DNA of 63,719 nt, filler included. It is 4 parts of 4 records of this genome, joined end to end, with 100 filler letters (N's around TTAATTAATTAA, not from the genome) between each part and the next. Parts side by side here need not be neighbours in the genome. Positions count along the whole stretch, not along the records: positions 17,805 to 26,797 come from SRR20825019_1761; 3 more parts are not named here. One strand, given 5' to 3'. Below, one piece after another: positions 17,405 through 26,797 of this stretch; position 1 is the first letter of the stretch, and every line of letters begins with the position of its first letter. A program made the translations under genes and the position numbers. The notes under the pieces are model-generated. The model ran no database searches, was not told the DNA's origin, and was given only the letters and a program-made list of their open reading frames with translations.

Positions 17405-17704
17405 TATGACCTTGGCCTAGATATCCTACCGTTGCGGCCCAGATGTTGGCAGTTATGGTAGAACAATCATAGTCATATTTATGGCCGGGCGGCCGGCCGC
17501 GTGAGCTCATGCCGGCCACCACTGGCACGGCCCGTCGGCCGGGCCCGTCAGGAGCGCCTAGGCCTGAGTCGCGCCCCAGGGCGCCCGCGGCGCCCTGCGC
17601 GGCCCGGGGTCGGCGGCCGCGGCCGGGCGTTCATTTCCACTGGTCACCAAGAAATTAAAAAACATATTTCTTGCCGATCGAAAAGTTCTATATTTAGAAG
17701 CATA

Positions 17705-17804: not shown

Positions 17805-17850
17805 TTTTTAATTAGTACTATACACAAATATAGCGTTTAAAATTATTAAG

Positions 17851-17913
17851 GAATTAGGGATTAGGGATTTGGGAAAAGGAAATAGGGATTAGGGATTAGA
17901 TGCTAGACTTTAG
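17851..17913. repeat. Degenerate 7-bp tandem repeat, consensus GGATTAG, 9 units
   Basis: GAATTAG GGATTAG GGATTTG GGAAAAG GAAATAG GGATTAG GGATTAG ATGCTAG ACTTTAG. Confidence 0.75.
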
Positions 17914-17962
17914 ATGTTTTAAAATTGTTATTGGGTTGGGGTTTTTAGGGTGTTGGTCTGGG

Positions 17963-19348
17963 TTATTTTTCCACAATAAACCTTCCTTTTATTGCATCAT
18001 TTAAGTGCGTAATTAGTTCGAAAAAATAGATACCAGAGCTTAAATCATTTATTTCTAATGACATTTTATATTTATCAATTGCATCAAGTTTTTTTAAAAC
18101 TTTCCCTACAGCATCATAGATAATAAGCTTGTTTATACTATTTCCATAATTTTCATCGAGCTGGAAGGTGATAATATTGGATGCAGGATTTGGAAACAAT
18201 GTTAAACCTGATTTTTTTTCATTGAAATCATTTACTGAAAGTGGCACAAAATTACCGTCTGCATCGAGTTTAATTAACCGTATATCAGATTCGATTGAAA
18301 AGTCGCTTGTAGCGCAAGTAATTAGGAAGCCCCCATCTGCAGTTTCTGTGATATTGTTACCGATCGTGAATAGAAATCCAGGTTCAAAATTACGAGTCCA
18401 CACTATTTCTGCAAATTCATCTAGTTTTGAAATATTAATTGAAAAATAATCATGACTATAAAACGATGAAGAATGTATAAAACCGTTTTGATTTTTCAAT
18501 GGTTTTATATGGTTAGAAAGTCCTATTCTTTGTTTTTTTGTCCACAGCGTATCTCCTACGGAGTTTGTTCTTATAAAATAGCTTAAAGGATAGCCATGAG
18601 AGACATCTGGTTCGGCAAAATGACCTGCAATCATATATCCACCATCTGGAAGCTGCAAAACAGATTGAGCACCATCATAAACACCATCCCCAAATAATTT
18701 TGACCACATTTCGTTTCCTTGAGAATCTACTTTTAGCAGTACAATAGCTGGAGCTATACTTGGATTAACAGTAGTACCGGCCAATATAAAGCCTCCATCT
18801 AAAGTTTGTATTACCGATACTAATTTCCCAATCTCATAACTACTTGACCAAATTAGGTTTCCTGAAGTGTCTGTTAAATATAAAATAGAGGTTTCCCCAT
18901 CTGTACCAACAAAATAGTAATTGTTATTTAGTGTTTCACCAACTGAAAACCCATCCATAAAGGTTGAGGAGGTATACGATTGTTCCCAAATCTTATTTCC
19001 ATCTGAATTAAATTTCACTAAATATGCATTAGTTGTTGAATTACTGGCTGTTCCTACTGCAAGAAAATTAGCATCACTAGTTTGTATTAAGGAACTTCCT
19101 CTTCTGGTTCCCGCAAAGTATTTATCCCATAGTAGGTTTCCTTCAGGGTCAATTAATGACAAAATTATTACAAAGTCTGTATCTGTAGGATTTCTGGACG
19201 ATCCAAGCACAAAAATATTACCATCGGTTCGTTCTATAACAGCGTCTGCATAGTTGTAATAAGGTTTTTCATAAATCTTATTAAATAAAATTTGCGCATC
19301 TGAAGCTGCATAGATCAAAATAAATATAATTGTTACAAAATATTTCAT
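17963..19348 (-). CDS. Secreted repeat beta-propeller protein with T9SS type A C-terminal sorting domain
   Basis: Signal peptide; repeated DGGF/YxxAG and xDxxGNxxW units; C-terminal LFPNPAS...YDAVGK...LSSGIYF...RFIVE. Confidence 0.85.
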   Translation of the reverse strand: MKYFVTIIFILIYAASDAQILFNKIYEKPYYNYADAVIERTDGNIFVLGSSRNPTDTDFVIILSLIDPEGNLLWDKYFAGTRRGSSLIQTSDANFLAVGTASNSTTNAYLVKFNSDGNKIWEQSYTSSTFMDGFSVGETLNNNYYFVGTDGETSILYLTDTSGNLIWSSSYEIGKLVSVIQTLDGGFILAGTTVNPSIAPAIVLLKVDSQGNEMWSKLFGDGVYDGAQSVLQLPDGGYMIAGHFAEPDVSHGYPLSYFIRTNSVGDTLWTKKQRIGLSNHIKPLKNQNGFIHSSSFYSHDYFSINISKLDEFAEIVWTRNFEPGFLFTIGNNITETADGGFLITCATSDFSIESDIRLIKLDADGNFVPLSVNDFNEKKSGLTLFPNPASNIITFQLDENYGNSINKLIIYDAVGKVLKKLDAIDKYKMSLEINDLSSGIYFFELITHLNDAIKGRFIVEK

Positions 19349-19489
19349 TTTTTCTTCATCTTATTTATTTTGTCTTGTCTAGAGATAAGTTAACCATTTT
19401 CAGGTTAAAAATAGTATTAATAAATATCGTAAATTTCCACGGAACATTGACCTTTTTTTTAAAAATAATCCCCTACGGATTGTAAAAAA

Positions 19490-19697
19490 GTTGCCAACAG
19501 TCCTATACCGTTTTTTTTTTATAAGATTTGTAATTTACCGCGTTATATTCTTTATGAATATGCTTTGGTGTTTCCATAGGGTTCTAAAAGTGTTTAATTT
19601 TTAGTCAACCTATTTTAGCGGGTCAGCGATTATAATGCAAAAACTTTGGGTAAGCATTTATACCCGCATTAGCTATTGCCATTGTTATCCGAAGTAT
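19490..19697 (-). repeat. attC-like cassette-junction element E
   Basis: On minus strand, TAA-AT-ACTTCGGATAACAATGGCAATAGCTAATGCGG ... CTGTTGGCAAC; left end resembles element D. Confidence 0.5.
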
Positions 19698-20330
19698 TTA
19701 TTCGAGTATAATTTTGTCTACTAATATTCCTTTATCGGAAATCAATTTAATCAGGTAAATGCCTTTGGAACTATCCGATAAATCAATTTGAGGGGTAGCT
19801 GTCAATTCTTTAATTTTCTTTCCTGAAATATCATAAATTAAAATTTTATTCAAATTTTTATTACTGATATTTATGATACCGCTTGAAGGGTTAGGATAAA
19901 TTATAGCTTTCTGATTATTAAAATCTTTAATTTGAAGCAACGGCCCGTTAACAAATTTCGTTTGAATAAAATCCGATTCCACTTCCCCAGGATTATAAAC
20001 TGCGGTTACGTGGGTAAAAAATCCTTCACCATTGTTATAAAACAGAAATTCCTCTCCTCCACAATTACTAACTATTCCATTTACTGGATCGTCAATATTA
20101 TAAATAGAAGTTGCGTCGCTTATAAATAAAAACAAGTCATTTTCTCTATAAATATTGTATCCTATAATTTCATCGTGAGGTTGTTCTGGCTCATCCCAAC
20201 TGAGAATAAAAAAATTGTTTGGATTTTCATACCTATGTTCCCAATTTAAGTTTTGAACTGGATTAATTTGTCCGATTAATTGAAAAGTAAAAGCCAATGA
20301 AATTGCAACTGTCAGTGTAACTGTTTTCAT
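19698..20330 (-). CDS. T9SS type A sorting-domain protein
   Basis: Probable start MKTVTLTVAISLAF at 20330 (the longer ORF runs through element D); C-terminal IYPNPSSG...YDISGK...KGIYLIKL...KIILE. Confidence 0.85.
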   Translation of the reverse strand: MKTVTLTVAISLAFTFQLIGQINPVQNLNWEHRYENPNNFFILSWDEPEQPHDEIIGYNIYRENDLFLFISDATSIYNIDDPVNGIVSNCGGEEFLFYNNGEGFFTHVTAVYNPGEVESDFIQTKFVNGPLLQIKDFNNQKAIIYPNPSSGIINISNKNLNKILIYDISGKKIKELTATPQIDLSDSSKGIYLIKLISDKGILVDKIILE

Positions 20331-20349
20331 AATGTCTTTTTTTTGTATG

Positions 20350-20494
20350 TTGTTGTGTACCGATTGAGCTATGGTTTCGTTGCGAAAAATGTCTACAAAT
20401 TTCTTTCCGCCATAGCATAAAGATAGCAAAACGGTGAGAATTTTAAGCAGAAAATTATGCCGCAATGAAGTATTGCCGTTGTTGGCATACGTTT
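20350..20494 (-). repeat. attC-like cassette-junction element D
   Basis: Minus strand TAA-AA-ACGTATGCCAACAACGGCAATACTTCATTGCG ... CGCAACGAAACCATAGC; internal TTGCG/CGCAA arms. Confidence 0.65.
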
Positions 20495-20893
20495 TTATTT
20501 ATTTATAACATACGTTTTAGAAATTGAATCGTGCCAACCTTTTTCTGATATTAGAAAAGAGAGGGCGTCAAATGGAATCAATCTGCAGAGATTGCGAATA
20601 AGTAAAGTCTTGAAATCTGGTTTATTCCCATTATAGTCAATAACCTTAGTTCCAGTTATAAACTTTCCTGGTGTTTTGCCAAAAGCATATTCAAAAAGCA
20701 AATGATACAAAACGTATAGAACAAAAAAATATAATACGAACCAATTAGAGCCCCTTTCAGGCATTATTCCAAGCCAACCATCAAGAACCATTGCGTTTAA
20801 AAAAATAAGAAAGTAGAATCCTATAGTATCTATAAGATTATTTCCAAATCGAGTTCCTTTACTTGCGTAATCAATTATTAATTCATTATTCAT
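20495..20893 (-). CDS. RDD family membrane protein
   Basis: ASKGTRFGNNLID, GKTPGK, LIRNLCRLIPFD, WHDSISKTYV. Confidence 0.9.
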   Translation of the reverse strand: MNNELIIDYASKGTRFGNNLIDTIGFYFLIFLNAMVLDGWLGIMPERGSNWFVLYFFVLYVLYHLLFEYAFGKTPGKFITGTKVIDYNGNKPDFKTLLIRNLCRLIPFDALSFLISEKGWHDSISKTYVINK

Positions 20894-20907
20894 TCCTAGT
20901 ATTTTTA

Positions 20908-21048
20908 ATGTTTGCCAAGGTAGGTTTGTGTATGATTAGTGGCGTGTTTTAAGCTCCTAATTTAATAAATAAAAACTGAATAGAATTTTGAAGTGTTGGG
21001 GTTAATATGTAGGCTATTACTAGCAATTAATTGATTTTGAATATTGGG
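20908..21048 (-). repeat. attC-like cassette-junction element B (near-copy of element A)
   Basis: Shares AATTAATTGCTAGT.ATAGCCTACATA...AACCCCAACACTTC and TTCTATTCAGTTTTTATTTATTAAATTAGG with about 25640-25780; ends CTTGGCAAACAT. Confidence 0.75.
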
Positions 21049-21600
21049 TTATTGATATAAAACATATCTTGGTGGTTTTAGTCCATTCAGTCGCAAATAA
21101 ACCAGCATTTGTCCTCTGTGGTGGGTTATGTGGTCGGTAAGCAACAACAAAATCTGTGTTTTTGTTCTGTCTGCTCCAAAATAGTCCAATCTTTCTTTAA
21201 GTCTATTTGGGTCAAAATTTCCGATGAACTCTATTGTTTTGTCAAAAGTCTCATTGATTTTAGCAATCATTTCTTTTTTCGATTTGGTGTCAACTTTGAG
21301 CTCCGTGTCGGTATTCCAATCTCTCGCTTCACGTCCGCCTATTAATGATTGACTGTGCCAATCCATTGCCCAACCAATATGCATTAAATTTTCCGCAAAG
21401 CTCATTGATTCAGGCGTTGGTTTATATTCATACTTATCTTCTGGCATTGTATTCGCTACAAGAATTAAATATTCTTTCGATTTTTCTAATCGTTCCAAAT
21501 ACTCTTTGATGAAGTCATTTTCTTGTGCAATAATCGGCTGTGTAACTGAGAACAAAAGCATTACCGAAGTCAGAATTAAAAGGTATTTTATGTTTTTCAT
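21049..21600 (-). CDS. DinB family protein with signal peptide
   Basis: Probable start MKNIKYLL at 21600; MPEDKYEYKPTPESMSFAENLMHI and DHITHHRGQMLVYLRLNGLKPP. Confidence 0.9.
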   Translation of the reverse strand: MKNIKYLLILTSVMLLFSVTQPIIAQENDFIKEYLERLEKSKEYLILVANTMPEDKYEYKPTPESMSFAENLMHIGWAMDWHSQSLIGGREARDWNTDTELKVDTKSKKEMIAKINETFDKTIEFIGNFDPNRLKERLDYFGADRTKTQILLLLTDHITHHRGQMLVYLRLNGLKPPRYVLYQ

Positions 21601-21637
21601 TTGTTTCAATTTATTATTTCCGATGGGTTTGGTTATA

Positions 21638-21783
21638 ATGAATGGCAACTTATTTGTATTTGATTAGTTGCGTTGGTAGGAACTAAGTTATTAAAAGAAA
21701 ACGAACCTCTGGAAAATTCAGCAGGAATTTTCCAGAGGAACAAAGCCACAGCAATGGTTTATACAGAGTGTGGGCAGTAGTTT
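21638..21783 (-). repeat. attC-like cassette-junction element C with perfect 14-bp apical hairpin
   Basis: Minus strand TAA-AA-ACTACTGCCCACAC ... CCTCTGGAAAATTC-ctgct-GAATTTTCCAGAGG ... AAGTTGCCATTCAT. Confidence 0.7.
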
Positions 21784-23103
21784 TTATTTTTCAGTTAATT
21801 CTATTGCTTTTTCTAAAACTACATCTTTGTCTGATAAAAAATCGTCAATTGATTGCTCAATTTCAATATCTGGCTCAATAGTAGCTTTTGGGTTTTTTTC
21901 TTGAACATCTGTAATAAATATGTTTCGAGCCACAGTATAAGTAAATTTTGTGTTTGTAAGTTCGAACTGTTTTTGATTTGCAGTACAGAATTGATTTGAG
22001 CCTAAGGTTTCTCCAACAAAAACTACTCTCTTTTTATCTTTGTATATAGATGCTAAATGACCAACGGTAGAATACCCATCTCCATTCATTACAAAAATAA
22101 TTTTCCCTTTAAAATTATTTTCAAAAGGTTGCTGCATCTCTTTTCTTCCATAATCACTAGTTGCAAAGTAATGAAAAGGGTCTTGTAGCGTATATTTTAA
22201 GAGATTGATTGACGCTTCACCTGGTCCTCCCAAATTTTGGCGAACGTCTATTATTAAGTTTTTATAGTCTTTGGTTTTAATTTCTTTAAAAGAATCATTT
22301 AGGAAGTTTAAAAAAACCTTTGTTTTATCGCCATAATATGCGAAGTTCCGTAGGGTCAATAAAGCTGTTTCAGCATTAATTTCTGTTAAACAAAAATCAT
22401 TTTGACACGGGTGCTTATTGCTAAAGAGTGGCGCATAGGGTGGATTTTCATTTAGAGGTTTTAAATTAATTGTTCCACTTTTACCTGCAATTGTTACATT
22501 GTAAACATCGGGAAAATTTAAGGCGTACGAAATTATAGAGGTATTATACCCATTAAAAAGTTTTCTTTTTGAACTTTCAATATTTGCTTGAGTATTGATA
22601 TGTGAATAAATAACAGCCATCATTTCACTAATAGATTTACCATTAATGTGGGTTATTTCTTGACCGATTTGCACATTATCTTTATTAGTTAAATTATCTA
22701 TAACATAAAGTTTATTATTGATAAGTCTTGTGAGAAGCGGAAAGTAGTCTTTTGGTTTTAGTAAATCTCTTTGTTGATTAAAAAACCCTAATGAAGTATG
22801 GCCGCAACTAACTATTGCAATAATCTCGCTCAACTTCCAAATAAAATCTTTTTTGGTAGTTGTATTATCAATTTCACTTCTTAACTGTTTAGCTTTTTTA
22901 TCGAAATCAGCTTTTGACGTGAATTCATAGAGCGCAGGATGATATGTAGACAAGGTATCTATTAGTTCATTATAATCTGCTACATAATTTTGAGCTTGTT
23001 TATTTAATGGTTCTCTTTTGTTTTGGTCAGAATTTTTTTGATCATTCTTACACGATAGGATAGCTAGCCCTATAATTAGAAAAGCTATTGTTTTATTAAT
23101 CAT
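21784..23103 (-). CDS. S41-family peptidase lipoprotein
   Basis: Lipobox AILSC; HPALY; CGHT; LIIDVRQNLGG; VFVGETLG; IEPDIEI. Confidence 0.85.
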   Translation of the reverse strand: MINKTIAFLIIGLAILSCKNDQKNSDQNKREPLNKQAQNYVADYNELIDTLSTYHPALYEFTSKADFDKKAKQLRSEIDNTTTKKDFIWKLSEIIAIVSCGHTSLGFFNQQRDLLKPKDYFPLLTRLINNKLYVIDNLTNKDNVQIGQEITHINGKSISEMMAVIYSHINTQANIESSKRKLFNGYNTSIISYALNFPDVYNVTIAGKSGTINLKPLNENPPYAPLFSNKHPCQNDFCLTEINAETALLTLRNFAYYGDKTKVFLNFLNDSFKEIKTKDYKNLIIDVRQNLGGPGEASINLLKYTLQDPFHYFATSDYGRKEMQQPFENNFKGKIIFVMNGDGYSTVGHLASIYKDKKRVVFVGETLGSNQFCTANQKQFELTNTKFTYTVARNIFITDVQEKNPKATIEPDIEIEQSIDDFLSDKDVVLEKAIELTEK

Positions 23104-23186
23104 ACTTTTTATTAATTAGTATCTAGTTATTCTGTACTATGATTTTTTTAGTTAGAGTTACTATTATGTTTTTAAAGACAGAAACT

Positions 23187-24284
23187 TCAATTGTTATCTG
23201 TTGTAACAAAAACATTTAATAATTGCCAAAAAGCATTATTGCTTACACCACCCGGTTTTAGTCCCCAATTAACTAATGTTGGCACTTTATATTTATGGGC
23301 TACTACAATATTAAGTTTTGGAATAACGGTTATGAATTGACCTCCCCATCCATGTGCAGTATAAGCTCCTTCAAAATCAGGGTGTTGCTTGAAATTATCT
23401 GCTAACCACCACATATAGCCATAAGAAAATTGAAATGGACTTGATTCGTTTAGTCCATATCGTTTATTTACAATTTCAGTTGGTGTTACTGTAGTTGTAA
23501 TTTTATCAATCCAGTTTTTAGATATTATTTGTTTCCCATTCCACTCCCCTTTATTAAGCATAAGTTGTCCAATTTTAGCCATATCTCTAGTTGATAAATA
23601 CATATGGTGGGCAGGGTATCTCGATTTACTTTTGTTGTATTTTTCTTTTTGATTTTTAATATTCCAGTCTTGAAACCCTAAGGGGATTGCAAGCTGTTCT
23701 TCAATTTCTTGATACACAGTTTTTCCAGATTTCATTTCGAGAATAGCACCAGCCACATTAAAGTCCCAATTATTATAAACAAAATACGATCCTGGTTTAA
23801 CACTACCTCTTTCTAAAATGTTATTTTCGTCATACCCTCCATTTGCAGGTTCATAAAACACTCCAGAACGAGATGTAATTATATTGTTAACAGTTGCGGT
23901 TTTCTCTATTTCTAATAATCCTCTATCTTCATCAATACCAATTTCGCCTATTTTTTGATTTAAGTTTATAACTCCATTTTCAACATATTTTCCGTACAAG
24001 ATGCTTAAAACACTTTTACGGCAGGAAGCTATATACCCTATTTCGGTATTATCTCCATATTCATAAAGAATTTTGCCGTCTTTTAATATCAACATTCCTG
24101 TTGTTTCAAGATTATTTTTTAAATAATTTGTTAAGGAGTCTAATCTTTGTTGGGTAAATCCTGTATTAGCTAAGGTTTCATGTTTTTCAAAAGAAACACC
24201 TTCAAATTGAGGTTTATGAGAACCGCAACTCAAGAATATGGTCATGCTTAGAATAATAATTACGATTTGTTGTTTTTTTACCAT
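23187..24284 (-). CDS. Serine hydrolase / beta-lactamase-family lipoprotein
   Basis: Lipobox FLSC; SxxK (SCRK); YNN; STRDMAKIGQLML; YGYMWW; HGWGGQ. Confidence 0.9.
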   Translation of the reverse strand: MVKKQQIVIIILSMTIFLSCGSHKPQFEGVSFEKHETLANTGFTQQRLDSLTNYLKNNLETTGMLILKDGKILYEYGDNTEIGYIASCRKSVLSILYGKYVENGVINLNQKIGEIGIDEDRGLLEIEKTATVNNIITSRSGVFYEPANGGYDENNILERGSVKPGSYFVYNNWDFNVAGAILEMKSGKTVYQEIEEQLAIPLGFQDWNIKNQKEKYNKSKSRYPAHHMYLSTRDMAKIGQLMLNKGEWNGKQIISKNWIDKITTTVTPTEIVNKRYGLNESSPFQFSYGYMWWLADNFKQHPDFEGAYTAHGWGGQFITVIPKLNIVVAHKYKVPTLVNWGLKPGGVSNNAFWQLLNVFVTTDNN

Positions 24285-24435
24285 TTTATTGATTTTAAAA
24301 ATTTAATGATGCGGATGTAAAACTCAACCAATAATTTTTTATTAATAATTTTTATTTACTGAATTGTATATTATTGATGATGAATTGTATTAATAATACT
24401 ACATATGTATTTCTGTCAGTACTAATTTTTTAAGC

Positions 24436-24822
24436 CTATTCATTCTCAATAAGTATTTTTTTAGTATCTACCCATTTCAAAGCTGTGATAATAATAATTA
24501 GAAGTGCAATGACTTCAATGCTTGCACAAATTATATAATGAGGCATTAAGCTTCCACCTCCAATAACATATATAATAGTTAAAACACTGGCGAGAATATT
24601 AAGAATACGATTTAATCGAAAAGATAATGATTTAGAAAAATAAATCATAAGTATCGGTATATTGGTTATAGCTGCGGCAATGGCCATTGTTGTAATAACT
24701 TCTCCAAAAATATTGAGTGTATTTCTATTTACAAGTTCTATTATAATTGATAGAATATCGGCAAATATTATATTAAGTATTACCACAATCCATAAGGTGG
24801 ATAATTTGGTTCGTGTATCCAT
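24436..24822 (-). CDS. Small four-TM membrane protein (DUF6326-like)
   Basis: KLSTLWIVVILNIIFADILS start and four hydrophobic segments. Confidence 0.7.
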   Translation of the reverse strand: MDTRTKLSTLWIVVILNIIFADILSIIIELVNRNTLNIFGEVITTMAIAAAITNIPILMIYFSKSLSFRLNRILNILASVLTIIYVIGGGSLMPHYIICASIEVIALLIIIITALKWVDTKKILIENE

Positions 24823-25026
24823 TAGCTACATTTTGATATTTTATTTTGCTTTAAAGCATTAAAGGTTTCAGGACTGTAGCCCCCTATTTTAGAGAGTTTA
24901 TTAAAATTTAATGCGCTTGATAATAACAAAGCAATACAGTTTTGCATCTACTACGTTTTAGAATTATAATGCAAAATTAAATTTATTTAATAGCAGAAAA
25001 CGTTCACTTAAGTTAAGAAAGGGATA

Positions 25027-25608
25027 TTAGCTTTTTATATTTTTTAGAATTCTCGATTTTATCCTACTTAAGGATTGAGGTTTAATACCTATTAAGCTTG
25101 CTAGTTGATGTTGTGGAACACGCTGAACAAGGTCTGGTCTGTTTTGTAATAAACTTAAATAGCGTTGTTCTGGTGAAGTTGTTTTAAACTCGTCTAAGTC
25201 TATTTTTTGTTTCATTAAATGTTCTTCTGAAATTATGCGACATAAAGATTCAAATTTTGGAAATTTCTGGAACATCTCGTTTTCCATCTCAGGATTAGAA
25301 ACGGTTACTATAGAATCTTCAATACAATCTAAGTAATATTCAGAGGCTTTTTTGTTTAGAACACAATTTGGTGTTATGCCTTCCATTTCTGTATAAAAAG
25401 CAGTAGTTTTTTCTTCTCCATCAATAATATAGTAGGTTCTAATACACCCTTTTAAAACAAAATACCCATTATTAGAGTGCTCGCCTTCTTTTAGTAAAAC
25501 AGTATTTTTTTTTACAGTGCGAAAAATATCTAGTGAAGTTAAAACCTCTTTTTCTTTTTCAGAAAGTGAAATGTATTTTGAGATAAATTCAAATAGTAAG
25601 TTCTGCAT
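25027..25608 (-). CDS. Crp/Fnr family transcriptional regulator
   Basis: LLKEGE...FVLKGCIRTYY cNMP-binding fold; PEQRY...RPDLVQRVPQHQLASLIGIKPQSLSRI HTH. Confidence 0.92.
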   Translation of the reverse strand: MQNLLFEFISKYISLSEKEKEVLTSLDIFRTVKKNTVLLKEGEHSNNGYFVLKGCIRTYYIIDGEEKTTAFYTEMEGITPNCVLNKKASEYYLDCIEDSIVTVSNPEMENEMFQKFPKFESLCRIISEEHLMKQKIDLDEFKTTSPEQRYLSLLQNRPDLVQRVPQHQLASLIGIKPQSLSRIKSRILKNIKS

Positions 25609-25633
25609 ATTTTAATTTGGTTTCATTTCGTGA

Positions 25634-25855
25634 AATTACTGACAAGGGTTTTGTATGAGGTTGGTGGCGTGTTTCAGCACCTAATTTAATAAATAAAAAC
25701 TGAATAGAACTTTGAGGTTTTGGGAGCGAGCCCCGAAGTGTTGGGGTTGGTATGTAGGCTATAACTAGCAATTAATTTTATGTTTTGTCCTGAAATATGG
25801 CTACAGGTTAAAATTGATTTTACGCTATTATTTTAATACATTGTTGGCAATAGTA
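25634..25855 (-). repeat. attC-like cassette-junction element A (composite)
   Basis: Minus strand TAG-T-ACTATTGCCAACAATGTAT ... body shared with element B ... ATACAAAACCCTTGTCAGTAAT. Confidence 0.75.
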
Positions 25856-26797
25856 CTATTTTATTTTAAGTGAGGTCTTATATATTTTACTTAAGCCATT
25901 ATTACTTTCATTAATATATTTTTTAAATTCTGAAATAGAATCGAAATTTCTTGGATGTATATTATTTCTTTTGCTTGTAAAATATAAAATTTGGTTTTGC
26001 TCATCATAAAATGGGCAATATTCCATATACTTTGTGTTCACCGGAATTCCTAGATTTACAGCTTTTTCCCAGTTTCCTTTTGTATCCTTCTTCGAAATAT
26101 ATAAATCTCCACTTCCTTGACCATCTTTTTCATTATATTTTGAATAGATTATGAAATCTTCATTTTCTGAAATAAAAGCATTAAACTCATAGCCGGTACT
26201 GTTAATGTTTTTATCTAATAAAATAGGGTTTGAATATTTATCACCTTTCCATTCACAATAATAAATATCATCATTTCCAAAACCGTCAGGCGATACCATT
26301 GTAAAATATATATTTCCATTTTTACTAACAGAAGGATAAAACTCGTCTAATTCTGAATTAATTGGTTTTCCAATGTTTTTAGGTTTTGACCACACCTCAT
26401 TTTTGTTACCTCTTTCAACAAACCAAATATCAAAATCCTTTTTTTTATTAATAGAATCATTTAAAGGTCTATTAGAGACAAAAAATAGTCGATTATTATC
26501 AAATGATAAAAAAGGCTCTAAATACATATATGAATCACAAAAAGGTAATAATTCTGGTTTTGACCATCCATTTTTTTTCTTTTTAATATAAGCAAGTTGT
26601 GAAATTTCTTGATTAGGGCTTTGTACAGTAAAGAATGCTTCATTCCCATCTTTTGAAATACAAAAATCTCTTACATTAATAAATTGATTTAGTGCTTTAT
26701 CAAATTGAGTAATATCAGATTCATTCTGAGCTGATAATAAATTTGAAATAAGAATTAACGAAATTACTAATCTGATTTTTTTAATTATTGAAGTTCT
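25856..26797 (-). CDS. PD40/TolB-like beta-propeller protein; frame open to the contig edge
   Basis: EPFLSFDNNRLFFVSNRP, DIWFVER, EFYPSVS, GSGDLYIS; in-frame upstream extension encodes signal-like IKKIRLVISLILISNLLSAQ. Confidence 0.85.
   Translation of the reverse strand, partial: RTSIIKKIRLVISLILISNLLSAQNESDITQFDKALNQFINVRDFCISKDGNEAFFTVQSPNQEISQLAYIKKKKNGWSKPELLPFCDSYMYLEPFLSFDNNRLFFVSNRPLNDSINKKKDFDIWFVERGNKNEVWSKPKNIGKPINSELDEFYPSVSKNGNIYFTMVSPDGFGNDDIYYCEWKGDKYSNPILLDKNINSTGYEFNAFISENEDFIIYSKYNEKDGQGSGDLYISKKDTKGNWEKAVNLGIPVNTKYMEYCPFYDEQNQILYFTSKRNNIHPRNFDSISEFKKYINESNNGLSKIYKTSLKIK

Follow-up and report, generated by a model that had tools for sequence, protein, structure and literature searches.

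Integrons are the standard example of a gene-capture system and are regarded as patchily distributed. Sedentary chromosomal integrons comprise an integrase (IntI), an attI site and arrays of cassettes with attC sites, as in the VCR arrays of Vibrio, and Treponema, Chlorobi and related groups have 'inverted' integrons, in which integrase and cassettes share one orientation. Xer proteins, which are also relevant here, resolve chromosome dimers at a single dif site. We analyzed a 63,719-nucleotide stretch of DNA (the window), in which four contigs are joined by N spacers. One whole contig, at positions 17805-26797, carries nine open reading frames (ORFs), all on the minus strand, and an initial annotation had proposed that they form a cassette array punctuated by five attC-like elements, A to E. 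Our analysis makes it highly probable that this contig carries an array of gene cassettes belonging to an integron-like capture system of a flavobacterial family, the array now decaying and free of a recombinase on the contig, in the manner of clusters of attC sites lacking an integron integrase (CALINs). We class the system as one that works like an integron and not as a member of the IntI-defined family. It appears to be widespread in the flavobacterial family.

CALINs have been described as attC clusters without an integron integrase, and the same work identifies IntI by PF00589 together with a profile of the IntI-specific region, as implemented in IntegronFinder (Cury et al. 2016, PMC4889954). 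According to the text of a 2022 survey, Bacteroidetes had earlier yielded only In0 and now had one complete integron, in Salinibacter ruber (PMC9024848), and a 2024 preprint places Bacteroidota among clades earlier found to be integron-free (10.1101/2024.07.02.601686). Two further papers count Bacteroidota among the integron phyla and give no detail (PMC9668308, PMC8618304). A literature search, with subscription journals and supplementary tables (where CALINs may be listed) outside its reach, returned no account of flavobacterial integron-like arrays.

The repeats of the contig, which recur across many genera in 61 relatives and often lie there at the ends of short contigs, belong to a defined family of sites. 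A seed profile of eight copies resembling element B (B-type) gave 64 nhmmer matches in 26 sequences, the window and 25 loci. At each locus all matches lie on the strand of the ORFs and are wedged between them. The family unit, of about 140 nt, starts past a stop codon with N7-AAC and ends before the next gene with GTT-N7. Across 47 aligned sites (alignment A1), the C of AAC stands a median of 17 nt past the stop codon, and the next ATG follows the G of GTT by a median of 43 nt. The sites consist, in order, of a leader, seven variable nt, AAC, a 3-4-nt spacer, a 16-nt arm, a center of about 75 nt (in most copies with a hairpin of 8 bp), the complementary arm, a 6-nt A-rich spacer, GTT and seven variable nt. 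AAC and GTT are each at least 90% conserved in A1, as expected of attC architecture, and we use the corresponding names R'' (7 nt plus AAC), L'' and L' (the two arms) and R' (GTT plus 7 nt). B-type sites span 122-141 nt from AAC to GTT, within a family range of about 65 to about 205 nt. The first site of a divergent array (L088:11680-11770, in G009:C7) is compact, at about 65 nt from AAC to GTT.

RNAalifold predicted no pairs on the gapped alignment A1; the structure was therefore written by hand from one site of G001, the genome nearest to the window contig (3.0 Mb, one contig), and tested by pair counting. The resulting 16-bp stem is 76.8% paired in A1, and nine of its pairs are changed on both sides, for example GC in 20 sites, AU in 16 and CG in 3, or UA in 32 and GC in 9. 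None of 500 shuffles reached its covariation score. In register, 70% of cells are paired, and in slid registers 32-39%; a structure derived from one member tends to beat slid registers anyway, so it is the double changes and the shuffles that carry weight. On the top strand, two positions of the stem almost never pair (0 and 1 of the 47 sites). Copies inspected by eye have A.C at these positions on that strand, which would be G.T on the bottom strand, and they represent conserved mismatches, not bulges with extrahelical bases. In 40 of the 47 sites, folding energy is lower for the bottom strand than for the top (mean -16.0 versus -13.7 kcal/mol), and three G001 sites fold as long closed hairpins, with z-scores of -5 to -6.4.

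The variable ends of the sites reveal where one cassette stops and the next begins. Within a site, complementarity of the two variable halves is random-like (median 3/7); the seven variable nt after GTT instead complement those before AAC in the next downstream site, with one or more genes in between. A naive genome-wide search for inverted repeats of the form GTT+7 / 7+AAC gave 526 downstream and 338 upstream-control pairs, both strands summed, and proved too noisy, so it was replaced by a site-anchored test. This test used 39 of the 47 sites, after four whose R' is not GTT and four with less than 300 nt downstream had been dropped. The GTT+7 10-mer has an exact reverse complement ending in AAC 150-6000 nt downstream in 25 of the 39 sites, and one with at most one mismatch in 32. 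With R' sequences taken from other loci in the same windows, exact matches numbered 22 of 1527 (1.4%), and 258 of 1527 had at most one mismatch. In locus L065, four successive sites chain perfectly. The outer half of R' thus belongs to the downstream cassette, as at integron cassette boundaries, and the homology limits of the RDD-family cassette of the window, described below, agree. A crossover in the GTT core would make the outer R' half travel with the downstream cassette, and a circularized cassette would restore a perfect R''/R' stem.

For genome searches we used a covariance model of the family (R1), whose training set took in elements B and C and left A, D and E aside. Of the 37 family genomes sampled, 36 contain R1 sites, as do 6 of 24 genomes of other families in the order, with up to 49 model matches per genome. 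The initial annotation had proposed such a model as a check, and in relatives the matches do form co-oriented arrays at gene boundaries. All 33 matches in G001 fall in six co-oriented clusters: a recombinase gene at 77.0-78.1 kb is followed by 18 of the matches, on the same strand, at 78.9-118 kb, and the other 15 make up five clusters without a recombinase. In G024:C11, a 15.9-kb contig (L063) holds 30 co-oriented ORFs and nine matches. Ten cassette ORFs from two intact arrays comprised seven without a Pfam family, one Shedu protein, one weak RES match and one weak ferredoxin-like match. The Shedu case, a 455-aa ORF at L063:6349-7716 (G024:C11), carries an SduA_C domain (E 5.1e-10) and represents an anti-phage defence gene held as a cassette.

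Several further features were noted along these arrays. In G001, at about 79.2-86 kb (L079:19150-19600 and L080:1-6000), the array is broken after two cassettes by ORFs of 357 and 741 aa. One of the interrupting ORFs starts with MATINFYLDKPDKKG, which we take to be like the N-terminus of Bacteroidota mobile-element integrases, and the interruption may be an element inserted in the array. Overlapping pairs of ORFs of 79 and 95 aa lie near array heads at L036:14957-15476 (G001) and L065:7856-8375 (G018:C21), and their size and layout suggest toxin-antitoxin cassettes. A fragment of a DDE transposase (PF13751; L065:7017-7649, G018:C21) heads an array without a recombinase. Housekeeping or unrelated genes, and no recombinase, were found at the heads of the G001 1.42-Mb and 1.53-Mb arrays and of those in G018:C21, G033:C7 and G005:C4.

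A conserved intergenic repeat of about 140 nt at this copy number could also be of the repetitive extragenic palindrome (REP) or miniature inverted-repeat transposable element (MITE) kind, or a terminator or regulatory repeat, the look of an array being incidental. In keeping with such an explanation, the element breaks assemblies, with many matches at the ends of short contigs; element C contains a terminator-like hairpin with a T run, and in element A two types of repeat seem to be fused. Several observations speak against it, among them the strict orientation with the flanking ORFs and the clustering seen in G001. The terminal 7 nt complement a neighboring site across a gene, which neither a self-contained mobile repeat nor an RNA structure predicts, and the conserved mismatches, A.C in the copies inspected and hence G.T on the other strand, favor the non-transcribed strand. 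The elements are, moreover, tied to a specific recombinase gene. We therefore regard an incidental repeat as very improbable.

A Pfam integrase scan of five array-rich genomes located recombinases of 355-385 aa beside arrays or at contig ends, as confirmed in the fetched regions. One such protein, queried against the 61 relatives at E <= 1e-60, gave 32 matches in 29 genomes: 27 of the 37 family genomes and 2 of the 24 outside the family. These two, G422 and G418, have the most sites of the outside genomes (22 and 6). Seventeen of the 32 matches share a contig with family sites, 15 with the sites co-oriented downstream and two divergent, and for another 13 the contig breaks off on the array side after less than 1.5 kb. 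A tyrosine recombinase of 355-376 aa thus stands at the array head in 17 of 19 testable cases. The catalytic residues are all invariant in seven aligned proteins. Close homologs, at 78-92% identity, occur under the source names Maribacter, Lacinutrix, Croceitalea, Cellulophaga, Arenibacter, Psychroserpens and Pricia, many of them on contigs of 1-5 kb. This distribution, in 27 of 37 genomes and next to arrays, is not that of a single housekeeping Xer copy unlinked to arrays, and two more Xer-like genes, each of about 300 aa, are present in G001.

Next to the recombinase gene, at a distance of 50-140 nt, lies the motif ..ATATAAAC(A/T)A or a variant of it, followed by GTTG. Read by eye, the GTT+7 of this junction matches the R'' of the first cassette at 10/10 positions in G001, G009:C15 and G009:C7, at 9/10 in G353 and G019:C26 and at 8/10 in G024:C1. 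By its sequence, the GTT junction beside the recombinase gene is attI-like.

The initial annotation had proposed a search for an IntI-like tyrosine recombinase near the arrays. A tyrosine recombinase is indeed there, and it is not IntI-like in the strict sense, as it has no IntI-specific domain. Its best NCBIfam models are NF040815 ('site-specific tyrosine recombinase/integron integrase'), at 185-233 bits for a cut-off of 220, with two of six proteins above, and TIGR02249 (integron integrase), at 186-221 bits versus a cut-off of 265, with none of the six above; XerD and XerC rank next. The best solved relative is the archaeal XerA 4a8e (156.6 bits, a single continuous match). The match to VchIntIA (2a3v) scores 138.2 bits and is in two pieces, which omit IntI residues 179-246 (68 residues) against 25 residues of the query. 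In a MAFFT alignment, the IntI-specific insertion of about 40 aa is present in 11 of 11 canonical IntI proteins of the phylum and in none of seven flavobacterial proteins, which accordingly have no IntI-specific domain near patch III, the mark of integron integrases in IntegronFinder and in Messier & Roy. An AlphaFold2 model (mean predicted local distance difference test score, 83.1) places a small alpha/beta domain, residues 6-77, before the usual two domains. No Pfam family was found for the extra N-terminal region of about 100 aa at E <= 10, save one match at chance level. Foldseek puts XerA and VchIntIA together at the top.

These data bear on whether the arrays are ordinary integrons or CALINs, with canonical attC sites visible to standard tools and a recombinase that is a divergent IntI. 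The AAC...GTT layout, spacers, hairpin, bottom-strand preference and cassette boundaries would all fit, as would the ranking of the two NCBIfam models. The recombinase and IntI also share motifs missing from the two Xer proteins of G001, such as a C-terminal ..NP(L/F)D.L, and a phylum-wide sample of 401 genomes has canonical IntI proteins (TIGR02249 above cut-off) in 113, of which all except one belong to other classes. These canonical proteins (330-497 bits, e.g. L090-L101) are concentrated in a few families of the other classes, the one same-class case being G489. Against this explanation stand the sub-threshold scores of all six recombinases on TIGR02249 and the count of 0 of 401 family genomes with a canonical IntI, the absence of the insertion and the presence of the additional N-terminal domain. 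IntegronFinder, moreover, needs the IntI-specific profile (PMC4889954), and the survey text cited above holds only In0 and then the one complete Bacteroidetes integron (PMC9024848). Taken together, we consider it unlikely that these are ordinary integrons, and favor an integron-like system with a recombinase and sites of its own.

We then return to the contig itself. ORF calls and Pfam searches bear out the initial description of nine minus-strand genes of unrelated accessory function: the families are PD40, cyclic nucleotide monophosphate (cNMP)-binding/Crp, DUF6326, beta-lactamase fold, S41 peptidase, DinB, RDD and, twice, a type IX secretion system (T9SS) tail. The motifs it had quoted are also in place, ACTATTGCCAAC, ACTACTGCCCAC, ACGTATGCCAAC and ACTTCGGATAAC at 1-2 nt past stop codons and CTTGTCAGTAAT, GTTGCCATTCAT and CTTGGCAAACAT ahead of the next ATG. 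R1 scored all five elements on the minus strand, at 83.4 bits for A, 79.6 for C, 68.9 for B, 29.5 for D and 17.8 for E, the last being weak, and gave no further match at E 0.1 across the window. The initial reading of the five elements as imperfect palindromes was not borne out. As single-stranded DNA, A, B, D and E fold no better than dinucleotide shuffles (z of -0.36 for A, +1.18 for B, with a range of +0.8 to +1.3, -1.48 for D and -0.78 to about -1 for E), and the z of element C, -3.9 in one estimate and -4.5 to -4.7 in others, comes solely from a local 14-bp hairpin followed by a T run. With no closed hairpin in these copies, the palindrome claim is rejected for them. Against Rfam 15 (E <= 10), the contig gave only a single snoRNA match, at chance level.

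The core triplets of the contig are worn: GTT has become CTT in A and B, AAC has become CAC in C, B is without R'' and the R' of D is degenerate. This wear, in B, A and C, fits the initial suggestion that the array is partly fixed. The contig has four sites at E <= 1.3e-4 (R1) and no recombinase ORF; it ends on both sides, and a recombinase may lie beyond. G001 contains the same repeat in clusters; outside the repeats, no stretch of DNA that it shares with the contig exceeds 108 nt. For each gene of the contig, the best DNA homolog among the 61 relatives is in a different genome and context, so that the gene-order comparison proposed earlier reveals no synteny. The contig itself recurs in four public runs from two studies, as a contig of about 9.1 kb in three and as shorter pieces in the fourth, and three of these runs may contain the source of the window itself. 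At A, B and the tail, peaks in depth and loose ends indicate that the same samples have more copies of the repeats.

The absence of a recombinase from the contig and the degenerate R boxes point to a decaying, CALIN-like array, and the homologies of the RDD and PD40 ORFs, detailed below, together with the worn boundaries indicate that it was a real one. On the evidence of its letters, the contig looks like a real but decaying cassette array. Mutations in several of its R boxes have probably left most of its cassettes immobile.

Such decay raises the alternative that all the arrays are fossils of a past integron-type activity, perhaps of a canonical IntI since lost, and that the adjacent Xer-like recombinase acts otherwise, for example in local resolving or inverting of DNA. 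The decay of the window's array and of several G001 sites agrees with it, as do the site-rich genomes without a recombinase and the four runs without joints. Arguing the other way, the exact 10/10 boundary matches in 25 of 39 sites are common enough to point to recent events, and at all six loci examined the junction beside the recombinase gene has the half-site that matches the first cassette. The catalytic residues are all kept, identity stays at 78-92% across named genera, and none of the 401 family genomes has a canonical IntI. Purely fossil arrays therefore seem to us distinctly improbable, and the preferred reading remains that of an integron-like system, of which the window contig is a decaying part.

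The individual features of the contig, all on the minus strand, are as follows, from its start in the direction of the genes. The first ORF (25856-26797; Pfam PF07676) encodes a PD40/WD40-like beta-propeller protein and is truncated at its 5' end by the contig end. A DNA homolog in G030, 83% identical, extends up to the stop codon and no further, and in G030 a family site precedes it. Site A (25634-25855; R1 match at 25631-25803) is a composite attC-like site, with an R'' (TATTGCCAAC) 1-2 nt past the stop codon, a piece of about 60 nt from a second repeat type, a B-type body and a degenerate R' (CTTGTCAGTA). Several genomes have copies of its 5' piece (25779-25838) at 90-92% identity. Genes for a Crp-like cNMP-binding protein (25027-25608) and a DUF6326 membrane protein (24436-24822), both assigned by Pfam, form a probable two-gene cassette (24436-25608). 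No recognizable site was found in the gap between them by the R1 scan or by reading the sequence, and the reverse complement of the site A R' 10-mer matches 8/10 nt right after the DUF6326 stop codon (by eye), which suggests that the two genes make up one cassette. Directly past that stop codon, at 24285-24435, an R''-like TACTGACAG read by eye marks a weak, possible remnant of a decayed site, unscored by R1.

A beta-lactamase-fold protein (23187-24284) and an S41 peptidase (21784-23103), again assigned by Pfam, follow at 21784-24284, and the gap between them likewise holds no site recognizable by the R1 scan or by reading. Site C (21634-21784), a B-type attC-like site included in alignment A1, has an R'' TACTGCCCAC in which AAC has become CAC, an R' GTTGCCATTC and the central 14-bp hairpin, which is retained. 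Its R' had no downstream partner in the boundary test. The DinB-family cassette ORF (21049-21603; PF05163) has DNA homologs of 67-73% identity in G025, G020 and G017, with similarity that spans the ORF only. Site B (20904-21057), also B-type and attC-like and in A1, has lost R'' and L'' and retains an R' CTTGGCAAAC with GTT changed to CTT; it has about 120 nt in common with site A.

The RDD-family cassette ORF (20495-20893; PF06271) provides the clearest boundaries. At 76% identity it matches a G037:C10 cassette flanked by two family sites with a perfect 10/10 R'/R'' pair, and the homology covers exactly the outer R' half, the ORF and R'', beyond which the sequences diverge. Site D (20346-20495) is an attC-like site of a second subtype, scored at E 1.3e-4 by R1 from outside the training set. 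Its R'' GTATGCCAAC matches the reverse complement of the R' of B at 8/10 positions, as read from the sequence, its own R' is degenerate, and it is 72% identical to a site in G020:C4. Two ORFs with a T9SS C-terminal sorting domain (PF18962) complete the array, a 211-aa one at 19698-20333 and a 461-aa one at 17963-19348. Between them lies site E (19490-19697), a weak or decayed attC-like site whose R1 match (E 0.11) covers 19594-19698 only; it has an R'' TCGGATAAC and an R' GTTGGCAACT, and its 5' end resembles D and the G001 site L034:16279-16487. The tail past the last ORF (17805-17962), unscored by R1, starts with an R''/L''-like CAGACCAAC-ACC-CTAAAAAC and continues with short repeats of the AATCCCTA type to the contig end. 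At 17848-17897 these include short tandem AGGGATT / AATCCCTA-type repeats, and the contigs of the public runs break there too.

Elsewhere in the window, the first contig (1-17704) ranges from about 42% to 67% G+C in 1-kb windows, against 25-39% in the other three. Its G+C-rich stretch at 17440-17700 adjoins the spacer, and this first contig may be foreign or chimeric.

The arrays of relatives, their boundaries and the recombinase at their head support the initial proposal of a flavobacterial cassette system with its own attC-like family. The site family with its covarying stem, the cassette boundaries, the link to the recombinase and the attI-like junction can be read directly from the sequences. 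Catalysis, the exact crossover point, the choice of strand and present activity are what we infer from the integron analogy. A cassette would comprise the TT of the GTT core, the 7-nt outer R', one or a few promoter-proximal ORFs, 7 nt plus AAC (R''), a 3-4-nt spacer, the L'' arm of the 16-bp stem, the variable center, the L' arm, the 6-nt spacer and a final G. In intact arrays of relatives, a tyrosine recombinase stands at the head, usually co-oriented, with the attI-like junction ..ATATAAAC(A/T)A|GTTG.. beside it. By analogy with integrons, the bottom strand of a site may fold into a long imperfect hairpin, the recombinase would cut at the GTT/AAC core, and cassettes would exit as circles and re-enter at the attI-like site.

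A number of points weigh against this reading. Sites and genomes are related, so the counts given above are not independent, and the family was defined from copies like element B of the window, with model E-values that are rough. At 2 of the 19 testable recombinase loci there are no clear sites. Ten of the 37 family genomes have sites and no recombinase at E <= 1e-60, including G005 (39 sites) and G033 (29), in both of which the Pfam scan also yielded no recombinase of this size class. The window's own sites, C excepted, fold no better than shuffles, and several of their core triplets are mutated. Recombination was not observed, and the Logan contigs of the four runs contain no joints, that is, no excised or rearranged forms; assembled contigs drop rare variants and excision products, so this absence says little. 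The recombinase, finally, is without a domain reported, in a title cited by PMC4889954, as necessary for IntI activity.

With regard to origin, we lean slightly towards the view that marine flavobacteria carry an unrecognized integron lineage, either deep-branching or independently derived, whose integrase may work without the IntI domain and may instead use a new N-terminal alpha/beta domain and a long-stemmed site with conserved mismatches. If the system is as described here, its presence in 36 of 37 genomes of a large, ecologically important marine family would change the picture of integron distribution, and a family widely treated as integron-free would have a major gene-capture system that is invisible to standard integron finders. 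It would also hold a large hidden pool of cassettes, mostly ORFans, including a Shedu-like defence gene. The system would offer a natural experiment in how a tyrosine recombinase handles folded single-stranded sites without the IntI-specific domain, and would explain recurrent assembly breaks in flavobacterial genomes. The R1 model and the boundary rule may be used for annotating such arrays.

Compared with known elements, the sites resemble REP and bacterial interspersed mosaic element (BIME) repeats and MITEs in being abundant, structured, intergenic and disruptive to assembly, and differ from them in orientation, clustering, cross-gene complementarity and the link to a recombinase. The recombinase resembles archaeal XerA (4a8e, 5hxy) and XerC/D, with its best match among solved structures, the same spacing of catalytic patches and the same fold. 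Unlike Xer, it is not universal in the family and adjoins arrays, and G001 has the two other Xer-like genes. The window contig, with several co-oriented sites within 4 kb and no recombinase, is like a CALIN, as are the five clusters that G001 carries beside its complete element. CALINs, however, are defined by the attC model of IntegronFinder, whereas the sites described here are defined by R1 and the contig is only 9 kb long.

The closest likeness is to sedentary integrons. Both have co-oriented arrays of mostly short ORFs of unknown function, each followed by a structured site with a 5' ..AAC, a 3' GTT.., unpaired spacers, a paired L box and a variable center. In both, sites are conserved by lineage, the outer R' half lies in the downstream cassette and the bottom strand folds better, and a tyrosine recombinase with an attI-like junction at the head is accompanied by recombinase-free, CALIN-like arrays elsewhere in the genome. 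In contrast to sedentary integrons, the flavobacterial recombinase lacks the IntI insertion, falls under the family cut-off and has an N-terminal alpha/beta domain of about 100 aa; the L stem is 16 bp long with two conserved mismatches, whereas attC has bulged extrahelical bases; B-type sites are 122-141 nt long from AAC to GTT; and in 15 of 17 cases the recombinase gene points the same way as its array. The canonical IntI proteins of the phylum differ from the flavobacterial ones in scoring 330-497 bits on TIGR02249 and in carrying the insertion. With inverted integrons, the system shares the co-oriented integrase and, at the level of the phylum, a neighborhood in which other classes carry canonical IntI.

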